From a virus: a stretch of 28,566 nt of DNA. The stretch is from IMG/VR virus record IMGVR_UViG_3300009431_000983; one strand, given 5' to 3'. The notes beneath the pieces are model-generated. The model was given only the letters and a program-made list of their open reading frames with translations, was not told where the DNA came from and searched no databases. Numbering within the stretch: position 1 is the stretch's first letter; each line of letters starts with the position of its first letter. This document shows, piece after piece, positions 8,831-16,184 of this stretch. Made by a program: the position numbers and the translations under genes.

Positions 8831-9454
8831 CTAGCCGAATAGAGCAGCGTCCACCACCTGCGAAGATACTGGACGATCGGACTTTCCCTGGGAAAGCCAC
8901 TCTTTGAACTGACCCCAGGTCAAAGCTGTAACGCTTCCTAGTCCTTTCCACCCAGGCTCGTAGTTACTTAAATATCCTTCTCTTGCCGCCTTCTCATTGG
9001 TGAACCCAACCATCACCTTGTGCTCATCGAACTCGCCATCCCAATTCTGGTCAACAACAAAAACGACTTCTGATTCCGGATTGTCTCCTATAAACACATC
9101 GATGTGGTCTCCATCAGCATCACTCTCTGTCAAACGGATATACCCGTAATGATGCTTCATCTTGATGGACCACTCCACGCCGTCCGAACTCTTTCCGCTG
9201 CGGGTTTGCCCCTTCCCTGTCTCAATCGTAATAGGGAGGCCCCGAACCGTAACTTTGCCTTTACGGTAATTCCCCGTCTCTTTCTGCTTTTCGGTGGGAT
9301 TTGGCTCGCACTTCTTGGCCGCCTCGTCAATCAGCTTCTTCAGGTCACCGTTCACCTGGGCAACCACTATCGACAGAAGCTGACTTGCCGACTTTAATCT
9401 TCCGTCTGCACCTATCACCACTGAAATCCCTATACCCGTTGTACCGTGCTTCAC
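8831..9454 (-). CDS. divergent family-I inorganic pyrophosphatase-like protein
   Basis: KHHYGYIRLTESDADGDHIDVFIGD resembles the PPase core NYGYI..T.S.DGDP.DVLV. Weaker matches elsewhere in the protein. Start uncertain: GTG at 9454 has no SD, while GTG GTG at about 9416 is preceded by AGGGA. Confidence 0.45.
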   Translation of the reverse strand: MKHGTTGIGISVVIGADGRLKSASQLLSIVVAQVNGDLKKLIDEAAKKCEPNPTEKQKETGNYRKGKVTVRGLPITIETGKGQTRSGKSSDGVEWSIKMKHHYGYIRLTESDADGDHIDVFIGDNPESEVVFVVDQNWDGEFDEHKVMVGFTNEKAAREGYLSNYEPGWKGLGSVTALTWGQFKEWLSQGKSDRPVSSQVVDAALFG

Positions 9455-9622
9455 GTTGACAGTTCGTCCGGCCTTGGCGGACTCTTTACAGCCGCAATAA
9501 AGGGCTATAAACAGCGAAATGTCTGTTCTGTCACAAGAAACTGCCCGTACACGACGAAGTGATGAACGAAACTGAATTCGCCCACCACTTCGTTATACCG
9601 ACTACAGGGACTACACCTATTT

Positions 9623-11154
9623 CTAACTTCTGGCCCAAAGTCTGGAGCGGAAATCGTAACTATATCCGCGGCCCTTCAGGTGCTTCTTCACTGCGTTGAT
9701 TTCCGACTTCGTGTAAGCCTCAAGCTCCGTTCCCTCAGGCAATCTCGCCGTAGTTCCCTCCTCATCGAGACTGCCGCTGGAGAACGTGCTCAAAAGTTCA
9801 ACGAGTCTCGCCTCAGTAACCTTGCCGTTACTCCCGGAAGGAGACTTGCTCTTCTTGGACGTCGTCTTGCGGCTCGCCTCCTCCTCAGGGTCAAACACTT
9901 TGCAACGAGTGATGACCGTCTGCTTGATTCCACGATATTCGTCATGCTTCTTGATGGTGCCCCGAACCAGCCGGTAGTCACCATATTCCCAGTCCTCATC
10001 ATAGTAGCTGGAGGAGAACCAGACAAATTGGTTGCCGTCTTCGTCTTCCAGCTTGTGGATGTGAGTGACTCCATAGTCTCCTTCGCTTCCCCGACGCTTC
10101 CGATATGTCTGCTGTTCAAAAACTTAAGGTCCCGCTCCTTGCGCTCGACTTCCCGCTCCATGTGTCTCTGATAGGAGGGGTAAATCGAAACCGCAAGGCC
10201 AATACCCCGACTGTCCACGTGCCCGATATTGGCCACGACCTTGATATTGTAAAGGTAATCGTTGTCTTCACCGACCGCAGCCGCCCACCATATCGCGGCC
10301 TCTGCCTGCTCCTTAACCTTGTCGGTCAGGGCTTCCCGGACGCTCTCCGCCCACTCAATGTCTCGTCGCTCCTTGAACCCACCACGAGGGGGTTCCATGT
10401 ACTTCATGACGCTGCATGCGGTGGACGTAGCACCGAAACCCTGCTCCCGGGCCTTGGTTGACGAAAGCCAGCCCTCGACCTTGATGACGGCTCCGGTCAC
10501 TTCCAGAAGATGCTTAAGGTCATAAAGCCGAGGACCTCCACCACCGAAACCTCCCTCAGTGTCGGAAGCCTCAGCCATGAGGTCCTTAAGGTCATAAAGC
10601 ATCGTTGCCCAAAGAGCCGCAGCATGAGGATCTTCGTTGGCGGCCCCCAAGAAATCCTGGATGCACTTCCGGCCAACCTGGACATAACGCCCGTCCTCGT
10701 GCTGCAGGACGAAAGTATCCTTGCGATTCCGGATAGTGCCGCAGTGGTCGCAAATCCGACCACGATTCCGCTGGTCCTCAGGACATTCCTCCCCAGGAAC
10801 ACAGCGAACAAGAGTAGCCTCTTCCAACTGCTGGATGGAAGCGATGAACTTCCAGCCCTGCAAGTGAGGCTTCTCGCCGGAAACCCTAATCTCGTGAAAT
10901 TCAATGATGGTAAGCCGCCGAGGGTCGAAGTTATCGAACATCTCCTCCGGATTGCAACCCTCTTCCAGGGGAATCTGAGGAGTGTTGGACTTTTCCTGGT
11001 AGTATCGCTGAACGGTCGTCCCGAGGTCATCCATCTGGACCTCCGGACGCCCGAGCTTCCTTGCGCGCTTGTTAATCTTCTCGACCGCTTCCTGAAGCGT
11101 CTGAAGATTAAAACCAGGAATGGCGTAGGTTTCTTCGAATCTCTCGTCCGTCAT
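9623..11154 (-). CDS. hypothetical CxxC zinc-finger protein, apparently requiring a -1 frameshift (or carrying a homopolymer indel) near 10118-10122
   Basis: Frame X (11154 down to about 10120) reads MTDERFEETYAIPGF...CDHCGTIRNRKDTFVLQHEDGRYVQVGRKC...ERDLKF. Beyond that point it degenerates into an Arg-rich low-complexity tail until 9790. Frame Y (-1) is open from 10123 to 9623 with no start codon and reads protein-like sequence (GSEGDYGVTHIHKLEDEDGNQFVWFSSSYYDEDWEYGDYRLVRGTIKKHDEYRGIK...GYSYDFRSRLWARS). One extra T in the T5 run would fuse X to Y, giving about 515 aa. Real start is the second ATG (11154), with GGGAGA 7 nt upstream. Confidence 0.5.
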
Positions 11155-13762: not shown

Positions 13763-14593
13763 CTACATGTTCCAACAACCGTGAAGACACCCCTTATCAA
13801 TGTGGTCTGCGGCCCCGGACCGAATCAGGTCCCGAACCTCCTCGATCGAAAGCTCCTTACGAAACCGGTGCTGAATCTTCTGCTCCACTTCCACATGCTG
13901 GTCCAAAAGTTCCTCGTTGTGCACACCAGCGATGAGCAGGGCATCCTTGGGAGCGAAAATGCAGAAGCAGCACGACAACCGAGGCATTCCCACGTCATAC
14001 GCCCAGTGGTGATTCGTCTCGATGGAGTGAATCCGATCCCAAACCTGCTTCTCCGTCCAGTCGTGGACCGGAAGCCAGTCATCAACGTGCCTGGTGGAAG
14101 AACTCGCCCGCTTGTTGTGGGTGAAGGGCTTCCTTTTCGCACGACTCGGAGACTCCTCCGCTCGCAACCCCATGCAGTTGAGAATCCGGCAAGGACCCCC
14201 GCCGTTCTCCTTCTGCAACCGCACGTAAATCTTGCGAATCTGATCGCGCTTGTGGTCCGAAGTGCAAAACCTGGCGCAGGACGAGGGCCACATCTGCCTC
14301 TTCTCCACGTGCTCCAGGATATCTCCCAGGACCTCCCCCTTCTGATTCACCGTGCCCTTACGGCTCACGATTTCGTATCGAAACCCATAATGGGCGCAGT
14401 GCTCTTTGAACAGGTCCACCGTCCCTGGCCAGTCCATCCGGCCAAGGTCGGCGTGAACCATGATGATCCGGTCTTCGATCCCCAGTTCCTTACACAGGTG
14501 GTAGACCTTATCAGTCGTTACCTGGGAGTCCTTACCGGCAGAACTGCTGATACAGATGAAATCGTAGCTCGCTAAATCCGGTGTTTCGACCAT
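13763..14593 (-). CDS. PAPS reductase / DndC-like PP-loop ATP pyrophosphatase family protein
   Basis: 276 aa. FICISSSAGKDSQV (PP-loop SGGxDS). VHADLGRMDWPGTVDLFKEHCAHYGF (like CysH DTG..FPET). C-terminal RLSCCFCIF Cys cluster. A promoter module with SD AGGGGACAGAGA is immediately upstream. Confidence 0.7.
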   Translation of the reverse strand: MVETPDLASYDFICISSSAGKDSQVTTDKVYHLCKELGIEDRIIMVHADLGRMDWPGTVDLFKEHCAHYGFRYEIVSRKGTVNQKGEVLGDILEHVEKRQMWPSSCARFCTSDHKRDQIRKIYVRLQKENGGGPCRILNCMGLRAEESPSRAKRKPFTHNKRASSSTRHVDDWLPVHDWTEKQVWDRIHSIETNHHWAYDVGMPRLSCCFCIFAPKDALLIAGVHNEELLDQHVEVEQKIQHRFRKELSIEEVRDLIRSGAADHIDKGCLHGCWNM

Positions 14594-14748: not shown

Positions 14749-16119
14749 TTATGCTGCGGTCATCCAAAGCCTTTCGTGAAACCGGTAGCTGAACCCGTTG
14801 GACTTGAGCCAACTCTTGACTCTCCGAATCAGTCCTGAGTCATACTCCTTCAGGGCCTTGCCTTCGGGGAGGCTAACGGCCAGCGGCTTGCCCTCGGCAT
14901 CCACCTTGACGGCGAAGGTCAAGACCTCCTCACTAGCATTCCCTCCCGAATTGCTCTCCAGCATGGACGTAGTCACGCTCTCGATATCGCCAGAGAGGAC
15001 CGAGTCCCAGTTACCGTCGAAACTCTTCTTGGCCTTGTCCTTGACCAGACCAGGAGCAGCGACCAGCATGTCCTCTATCGTCGGATAAACGTCCTCCTGA
15101 CGCTCAGCCAGGTAGATTCGGTTGCTGCGGGCCACTTCAGTGACCGGCTGTCCGCTCTCGGCGGCCATTTCTGCCAGGCGGGCCTCAATCTCTTCCCGGT
15201 CACCCCGGTGAAGACCCTCGACCTTCCGGTCGGCCCGTTGCTTCTTCCAGTAAATTCTCCGGACTCGGTAGACGGCCCATTCCTCTTCAGCGAGAACCTC
15301 TTCCAGGTTGCCCACGGCGTCCTCATTACCGTCATCCCGGACGCAGGTCTCGACGCTCTTTTTCGGATAAAGAGTCATGCGAGGGTTCAAAGCGGTGGAC
15401 ACCCGCTCCAGGAGCATGGCCTCAGCGGCGGCTTCCGGATGGTCCTGATAGCGGTCGAGAATCTCACCCTTGCCGTTGGAGAAAGGGCAGAAGGAGCAGC
15501 AACTCTTCTTCCAGGCGACTCCCAGAACTTCCTCGATGTACTGCTCGCACTTCTCACGACCCCACCCCCAGTCAACCAGGGGGTAACTTACGTTCCGGTA
15601 GTCCGTCGCGAAAGACTTGTCCCTCTCGACCCGCTTAAGCTCATCTGCGTTGAAGCCGATGATGTGCTTGTATTCCGTGCCAGGAAAGCTGTCGTGAATC
15701 CAGGCGTCCAGCACCACACCCTTGAACTTGATGGAGCACCGACGATTCCCAACCGTAAACTGAGGAACCGTTCCCGCCGAAGTGAGTTCATCACTCAGCG
15801 TGTACTGACCTTCCAGAAGAACCTCCGTTGGCTCATCAGTGTCGGACAGCACCACGTAGACCTCCCCCTCCTTGAGACTGGGGCCTTTGCGGGCCACCTG
15901 GACATAGCGAATGCCATGCTCCCGGAGAAGGGGCAAGATATGCTCTTCGAGCAACTTCTTGGTGTCTGGGAACTCGTTGCCGACTTGCGAGGTGAGAACG
16001 ACCAGGTCTTCAAGCTCGAAATCCCTGGAAGCCGGCTCAAGGATCCAACGCAGGAGGATGGCCGTTGAGTCAACGCCCATCCCGTAAGAAAGGATAATCG
16101 GAGTTTTGCTGTCTGTCAT
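14749..16119 (-). CDS. PAPS reductase / DndC-like PP-loop ATP pyrophosphatase family protein (long form)
   Basis: Start trimmed to the second ATG (16119). The first ATG lies inside the promoter -10 element GTGTATGTATATAAAAG. TPIILSYGMGVDSTAIL (PP-loop). KSCCSFCPF Cys motif. Long acidic C-terminal extension ending ...KSWLKSNGFSYRFHERLWMTAA. Confidence 0.7.
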   Translation of the reverse strand: MTDSKTPIILSYGMGVDSTAILLRWILEPASRDFELEDLVVLTSQVGNEFPDTKKLLEEHILPLLREHGIRYVQVARKGPSLKEGEVYVVLSDTDEPTEVLLEGQYTLSDELTSAGTVPQFTVGNRRCSIKFKGVVLDAWIHDSFPGTEYKHIIGFNADELKRVERDKSFATDYRNVSYPLVDWGWGREKCEQYIEEVLGVAWKKSCCSFCPFSNGKGEILDRYQDHPEAAAEAMLLERVSTALNPRMTLYPKKSVETCVRDDGNEDAVGNLEEVLAEEEWAVYRVRRIYWKKQRADRKVEGLHRGDREEIEARLAEMAAESGQPVTEVARSNRIYLAERQEDVYPTIEDMLVAAPGLVKDKAKKSFDGNWDSVLSGDIESVTTSMLESNSGGNASEEVLTFAVKVDAEGKPLAVSLPEGKALKEYDSGLIRRVKSWLKSNGFSYRFHERLWMTAA

Positions 16120-16148
16120 CTCTGTCCCCTGTAGGTAGGTTTTCCCTA

Positions 16149-16184
16149 CTTTTATATACACCGCTCAGGGACAGTTTTTCAATC
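16149..16184 (-). promoter_or_regulatory. promoter module P3 (TTGAAA - N17 - GTGTATATAAAAGTAGGGAAAACCTACCTACAGGGGACAGAG ATGAC)
   Basis: Near-identical to P1 across about 50 nt including the leader. Upstream of gene 14749..16119. Confidence 0.6.

Follow-up and report, generated by a model that had tools for sequence, protein, structure and literature searches.

A probable out-of-frame deletion truncating a phage gene of the phrog_2319 family

The window analysed here, by which we mean the whole stretch of 28,566 nucleotides, carries on its minus strand a gene whose coding sequence is divided between two reading frames. Its neighbours are all on the minus strand too: they include a class II ribonucleotide reductase, an adenylosuccinate synthase, an InPase and a destabilase-like lysozyme and, further, PAPS-reductase-like genes, DUF932 and DNA methyltransferases. 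The upstream part of the gene is an open reading frame (ORF) of 459 aa (P0001; 9790..11169, frame 0), in which residues 1 to 361/364 are homologous to phrog_2319, a widespread, uncharacterised phage family of unknown function. Both the homology and the coding character of this ORF fade near residue 361-365, leaving an out-of-frame tail of about 95 aa after residues 361/364; its last ~95-110 residues are rich in Arg, Ser and Thr and non-coding by codon usage, and no homologue of them was found, so that an earlier note on this DNA was apt in calling the tail Arg-rich and junk-like. The downstream part lies in the -1 frame of the same strand, which is open from 10123 to 9623 (166 sense codons followed by a stop at 9625-9623), has coding-like codon usage throughout, and comprises what appears to be the remnant of a C-terminal beta-barrel (strands beta2 to beta5; 9893..10084) and a lineage-specific C-terminal extension of 89 aa (9626..9892). 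The 336-nt "intergenic" gap that follows the 459-aa ORF is the out-of-frame remainder of this same gene.

The 89-aa extension ends in the pattern LPEG..L..Y....I..VK..LK..G(Y/F)SY.F..RLW, and over its last ~40 residues the -1 ORF is similar to the C-terminus of a 470-aa PAPS-reductase-like ORF of the window (14749..16161, phrog_424; tblastn E 1.4e-8), on which the paralogous tail motif occupies 14764..14973, also on the minus strand; the claim that the two proteins have a terminal motif in common thus stands. It had also been claimed that the -1 frame has no possible start codon, which holds for the conserved part of the ORF and fails beyond it: the first ATG, GTG or TTG in that frame is a GTG at 9898, 75 codons in. 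A separate start for the C-terminal part of the gene was considered and rejected, as this codon lies past the conserved barrel domain and has no Shine-Dalgarno (SD) sequence; the AAGGAG-ACT-ATG at 10083-10072 belongs to frame 0.

Codon usage was scored as a log-likelihood, with ten other genes of the window as the training set. For frame 0 the score is positive as far as ~10120, then drops and is negative after ~10060; for the -1 frame it is positive from ~10120 and remains so to 9625, so that by this measure the coding frame changes between 10120 and 10060. From the scores of both frames we conclude that the two-frame structure of the gene is real and that the frame-0 tail is not coding-like.

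Homology searches point to a single gene. The joined protein matches the phrog_2319 profile in one stretch (residues 12-425 against profile positions 3-396 of 399; E 6.6e-64), in agreement with the earlier note's view that the two ORFs are one gene. A search of 5.8 billion proteins returned, besides the window's own P0001, 57 homologues of ~390-620 aa and 23-39% identity, every one of which aligns through the junction into the C-terminal domain. By tblastn, 377 of 50,697 phage records match, each as a single piece, and in 49 of these the piece covers at least 80% of the query and thus spans the junction in one frame; the phages matched include Vibrio phage KVP40, Aeromonas phage Aeh1, Salicola phage SCTP-2 and Streptomyces phage Zuko, and nearly all the matching records bear the annotation "hypothetical protein". 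The comparison with orthologs that had been proposed as a check for one continuous ORF therefore comes out in favour of continuity, and no split homologue was found among the 57 proteins and 377 phage records. These relatives are situated in non-structural or early regions of phage genomes: P0004, for example, adjoins a Prim-Pol/VapE gene and precedes the terminase genes, and P0002 has an integrase and a DNA methyltransferase among its surrounding genes.

The architecture of phrog_2319 consists of an N-terminal region with an invariant C-x-H-C...C, a helical middle and a C-terminal five-stranded beta-barrel. Seven invariant residues are present in the window protein (C140, H142, C143, R149, G166, C169 and K407), and these, with the full-length profile match, indicate that the gene is a member of the family. 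It differs from the other members in three ways: 13 residues are absent (beta1 in the C-terminal barrel), its C-terminal third sits in another frame, and it bears the 89-aa extension, which is absent from most members; the intact barrel in one frame that is expected of the family is thus replaced by a barrel without beta1 whose remaining strands lie in the -1 frame. Searches of the joined protein against Pfam and of PDB profiles gave no match, and the matches of Foldseek against viral models (BFVD) were uncharacterised phage proteins throughout. Four other PHROGs also match the C-terminal barrel with their own C-termini, which makes the barrel a mobile module.

The place at which the frame changes can be read from the conserved residues on either side of it. 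The minus strand here runs GAC CTT AAG TTT TTG AAC AGC AGA CAT ATC GGA AGC GTC GGG GAA GCG AAG GAG ACT ATG GAG, with codons divided as in frame 0. Codons 352-360 (10090..10116) encode N-S-R-H-I-G-S-V-G, which corresponds to the family motif S-x-H-(V/I/F)-G-x-V-G-x-(R/K), whose S, H, G, V and G are kept in 41, 29, 53, 34 and 46 of the 57 homologues, respectively. The frame-0 peptide NSRHIGSVGE fits every conserved position of this motif. On a ten-column PSSM its score of 22.7 bits equals the median for true homologues, and no other of the 42,564 stop-free 10-mers in the six frames of the window reaches it; read in frame -1, the same stretch gives EQQTYRKRRG and -18.9 bits. With an HMM built from the homologues, the hmmsearch alignment covers profile positions 6-333 in frame 0, where it ends at ...SRHIGSVGEAKET (an end also given as ...ERDLKFLNSRHIGSVGEAKET), and positions 338-408 in frame -1 (E 9e-27), where it starts near ...GSEGDYGVTHIHKLEDEDGNQFVWF. 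The lesion interval is GGGGAAGCGAAGGAGAC (10076..10092, minus strand), in which the last frame-0 homology, at G360 or possibly as far as E364, abuts the first homology of the -1 frame, E-G-D-Y-G-V, from 10084. A scan over every possible junction peaks at codons 361-362, where the joined protein scores 418.8 bits (codon 361); the whole-protein score is flat within ~5 bits, and the strong discrimination between junctions comes from the local motif score. The frame-0 motif and the peak of the scan together place the frame change between G360 (10090) and Y-G-V-T (10075 onward), by sequence comparison at about 10076-10090.

At this junction the gene is also shorter than its relatives. From the first G of the motif to the aromatic residue of (Y/F/W)-G-(V/T)-T there are 9 residues in the window; in the homologues the same spacing is at least 22, and it is 22-23 in 50 of the 57. 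What the window lacks corresponds to residues 337-349 of P0002, EVFTLTFTGWSEF, 13 residues that all 57 homologues have. The AlphaFold2 model of P0002 (pLDDT 86.9) predicts a C-terminal barrel of five strands, 336-351, 354-362, 368-373, 385-398 and 401-414, the first of which is modelled with pLDDT above 90 and has the missing 13 residues as its body. The model of the window's chimera has four strands only, at 370-375, 381-386, 401-412 and 415-426. Thirteen codons and one base make 39+1, or ~40 nt, a length of the form 3n+1; continuous relatives, together with conserved residues missing at the junction in a number that amounts to 3n+1 or 3n+2 bases, are what is expected of a gene-disrupting out-of-frame deletion, and this gene shows both. 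The bases GAAGGAG (7-8 bases) read K-E in frame 0 and E-G in frame -1, and each reading fits the family consensus on its own side, as would be expected of a deletion between short direct repeats.

We therefore regard an ordinary and probably recent out-of-frame deletion, truncating a phage gene of unknown function, as the likely explanation. In this phage lineage one internal deletion of 3n+1 nucleotides, most simply ~40 nt, would have occurred with its junction at ~10076-10090, removing strand beta1 of the barrel and putting all of the gene that follows in the -1 frame; a single deletion of this size explains the lost strand and the -1 offset alike, and we infer one event behind the two. Normal translation would then give the 459-aa product, with ~361-364 native residues followed by ~95 out-of-frame residues (for example, the tail peptide ETMESLTSTSWK), and the remaining barrel and the 89-aa tail would stay untranslated, so the gene is presumably truncated in function. 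The deletion would be recent because the -1 frame is still open and coding-like. What speaks against a deletion is this same condition of the -1 frame, which is open over 166 codons and very near the family consensus and hence requires either a recent event or continued translation; pseudogenes are, moreover, uncommon in compact phage genomes. The earlier note did not consider a deletion.

The earlier note had instead placed the frame change within 10100-10126, at a T5 run (plus-strand AAAAA at 10118-10122; minus strand CTTAAGTTTTTGAAC, which we confirm), as either a one-base indel or slippage on UUUUU, either of which would give the joined peptide ...ERDLKFFEQQTYRKRRGSEGDYG...; we consider a change at exactly this run extremely improbable. 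The -1 frame does open at the T5 run, as the note reported, and does so because a TAA (10126-10124, by the codon table) stands just upstream; the whole-protein HMM score with a junction here, 413.9 bits, is only ~5 bits under the optimum. However, frame 0 stays homologous for 10-14 codons past T5, through NSRHIGSVGE(AKE), the near-invariant G357 (53 of 57) and G360 (46 of 57) are recovered in frame 0 only, and the scores of the ten codons past the run, given above, differ sharply between the two frames. The true junction lies ~30-40 nt 3' of the run in gene orientation and outside the reported interval, and between FFEQQ and RRGS the joined peptide is incorrect; the T5 run marks only where the -1 frame first opens. 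There is no support for slippage on UUUUU, since G_TTT_TTG is not a canonical X_XXY_YYZ slippery heptamer and no homologue has the same arrangement. A homopolymer error at T5 is contradicted by the frame-0 motif downstream, and two other contigs have an identical sequence. These are the JGI contigs Ga0117909_1009232 (19.5 kb, sample 3300009320; 100% identical to the window over 14,675 bases) and Ga0171657_1104959 (2.06 kb, sample 3300013120; 100% identical over 2,063 bases), both of which carry the same 459-aa product. Given this identity, a random consensus error appears unlikely, although the three contigs may stem from related samples. An artefact near the true junction, not at T5, could take two forms, a missing base in GGGG (10092-10089) atop a natural in-frame deletion of 13 codons, or a ~40-nt deletion made by assembly, and we hold such an artefact to be rather unlikely. 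The G4 run does lie inside the junction interval, one added G restores the frame (the real gene would then be one in-frame ORF, ...HIGSVGGSEGDYGVTH...), the -1 ORF is intact and coding-like, and identical contigs could share reads or come from related samples. Yet the three were assembled separately, homopolymers of 4-5 nt are not error-prone in short-read consensus, and no repeat is long enough to collapse the assembly. The missing-base form would further require that a natural strand loss and a 1-nt error, two independent events, coincide within ~10 nt in a 1.5-kb gene, which by our own estimate would happen in under ~1% of cases, and the repaired protein would still be without the strand kept by all 57 homologues. 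An 11-nt tandem duplication (GGAAGCGxxGG) was also considered as the sole lesion: removing one unit restores the frame, yet ~17 family residues would be missing, and it was rejected because a second, in-frame deletion would also be needed. An intact or otherwise different allele was not found: blastn against the 50,697 phage records gave no match, scans of viral and metagenome contig collections for peptide patterns gave no relative, and scans of the same collections for exact 30-mers found nothing. The best non-self protein is 39% identical, and with no closer relative the ancestral sequence and the exact length of the deletion are estimated from distant homologues only.

Programmed recoding within 10076-10101, as a -1 shift or as an 11-nt hop, would produce both the 459-aa protein and a fusion of ~510 aa with the barrel remnant and the shared C-terminal tail, and would be visible in trans-frame peptides such as HIGSVGE-(S)EGDYGVTHIHK, HIGSVGE/SEGDYGVTHIHK or HIGSEGDYGVTHIHK; we judge it quite improbable. 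In its favour can be cited the -1 ORF itself, coding-like, open for 166 codons and without a start before the conserved domain, and the preservation of the tail motif on a second protein of the same phage. Several local features could also be read as signals. A 7-nt direct repeat, GGAAGCG, occurs at 10101-10095 and 10090-10084 with an 11-nt period (close 7-mer repeats number ~0.04 per 50 nt in the window), and sets identical GGA AGC codons in frame 0 (first copy) and in frame -1 (second copy); in the hop, peptidyl-tRNA(Gly) would move from GGA at 10101-10099 to the repeated GGA at 10090-10088. An SD-like AAGGAG lies at 10083-10078, inside the lesion interval, and an RNA hairpin is predicted from ~10070 (9991..10070, minus strand; -28.2 kcal/mol, z -2.66). 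In programmed frameshifting a stimulatory RNA structure lies 5-9 nt downstream of the slippery site, an SD-like element ~10-14 nt upstream of it, or both; with no slippery site here, such distances have no reference point. Against recoding stand the following: frame 0, searched over codons 330-459, contains no X_XXY_YYZ heptamer, the contexts within the junction interval being C_GGG_GAA, G_GAA_GCG and G_AAG_GAG; the hairpin is only mildly better than shuffles (4 of 200 as good) and was the one significant case among three windows tested; the putative take-off codon is not followed by a stop codon or other known bypass signal; an Rfam scan of the window gave no element; and the arrangement is absent from the 57 homologues and the 377 phage records. 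Any fusion would in addition lack the conserved strand beta1, and with the hop the motif's conserved V-G would be lost too. A tRNA scan of the window found nothing. The narrower proposal that, once the deletion had taken place, the GGAAGCG repeat came to serve for recoding, through an 11-nt tRNA(Gly)/tRNA(Ser) hop or a non-canonical -1 shift assisted by AAGGAG and the hairpin, we consider highly improbable; were it true, part of the barrel and the shared tail would be restored, and a truncated and a fused protein would both be made. Recoding in general finds no positive support here, and we take the repeat, the AAGGAG and the hairpin for chance features or a mutational scar.

For annotation, a deletion of the kind proposed means that the 459-aa ORF is best labelled a disrupted phrog_2319 member and not a complete protein, and that its last ~95 residues should not be taken for real protein sequence. 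For scans of this kind in general, the opening of an alternative frame gives only the upstream bound of a frame change, which should be located by conserved motifs before homopolymers or slippery sites are invoked. Recoding, if it did occur, would make this a new non-canonical recoding site in a phage.

Among known systems, three bear comparison with this locus. Programmed -1 frameshifting, as in dnaX, the lambda G/GT tail-assembly chaperones and the IS3-family transposases, shares with the window gene the pair of overlapping ORFs in frames 0 and -1, of which the downstream one is without a start, as well as an SD-like AAGGAG inside the gene and a hairpin close by; the window gene differs in that it has no X_XXY_YYZ heptamer, that no homologue keeps the two-frame arrangement, and that a conserved strand is deleted where its frame changes. 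The bypassing of T4 gene 60, with its GGA take-off and landing codons, is similar in its matched GGA codons in different frames and in the hairpin nearby, but the gap in the window is 11 nt and not 50, the take-off codon is followed by AGC and not by a stop, and the locus falls 13 residues short of its homologues, with no inserted gap to be bypassed; the junction does not qualify as a bypass of the gene 60 type. With the ordinary frameshifting indel or pseudogene the window gene has in common that what is one ORF in all relatives is here divided over two frames, that the junction lacks conserved residues, that the downstream part is without its own start codon, and that neither a recoding signal nor a conserved split was found; the window differs in its undecayed downstream frame, with 166 codons free of stops and strong homology.

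The disrupted phrog_2319 gene belongs to a family with members in many cultured phages (KVP40, Aeh1, and Salmonella and Dickeya phages). A C-x-H-C...C signature (C140, H142, C143 and C169 in the window's protein) is invariant across alignments A1-A3 of the family's homologues, in which a DFLG motif is also conserved; the signature is possibly a zinc site. A profile search of the PDB found no structural relative of the family, and a search of BFVD returned uncharacterised phage proteins only. In one record, that of Tunturiibacter phage Tunturi_5, a homologue is labelled 'RecT-like ssDNA annealing protein', a label that none of our searches backed.

At the lesion where the gene passes from frame 0 to frame -1, the minus strand carries two copies of the 7-nt direct repeat GGAAGCG with an 11-nt period (10084-10101); the first copy lies in frame 0, the second in frame -1. 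The repeat may be the scar of a templated insertion or of slippage, or it may have arisen by chance, the chance expectation for such close 7-nt repeats being about 0.04 per 50 nt.

The gene ends in a C-terminal motif of about 40 aa, LPEG..L..Y....I..VK..LK..G(Y/F)SY.F..RLW (minus strand, 9626-9740), which tblastn (E 1.4e-8) also places in a 470-aa PAPS-reductase-like ORF matching phrog_424 (motif at 14764-14973, minus strand). The two proteins are otherwise unrelated, and the motif, which has no Pfam match, could be a docking or targeting tail common to both. The -1 frame stops at 9623, and from there to the InPase gene (8831-9454) some 170 nt (9455-9622) contain no obvious gene; this gap is the largest in the region even with the disrupted gene extended to its true end, and neither a promoter nor a terminator consensus was found in it.

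The 470-aa ORF (14749-16161, minus strand) neighbours a second PAPS-reductase-like ORF, of 276 aa (13763-14593, minus strand; PF01507), and beside the pair lies an ORF of 498 aa that matches HATPase_c_3 weakly. These genes, taken with several N6/N4 DNA methyltransferases that the window encodes, suggest a DNA-modification module.

All long ORFs of the window lie on the minus strand, and GC skew is strongly negative throughout (-0.08 to -0.31). Scans of the whole window found no tRNAs and no Rfam matches; the contig is absent from viral_contigs, an IMG/VR-based collection, and blastn against 50,697 phage records found no DNA-level relatives. The contig is phage-like.

A 947-aa ORF (19502-22345, minus strand), without a PHROG match, resembles the major vault protein (MVP): it matches the MVP shoulder domain PF11978 at E 1.6e-23, contains a Vault_3 repeat and aligns with residues 467-769 of rat MVP (phmmer E ~1e-9). 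For an MVP-like protein, a phage context is unusual.
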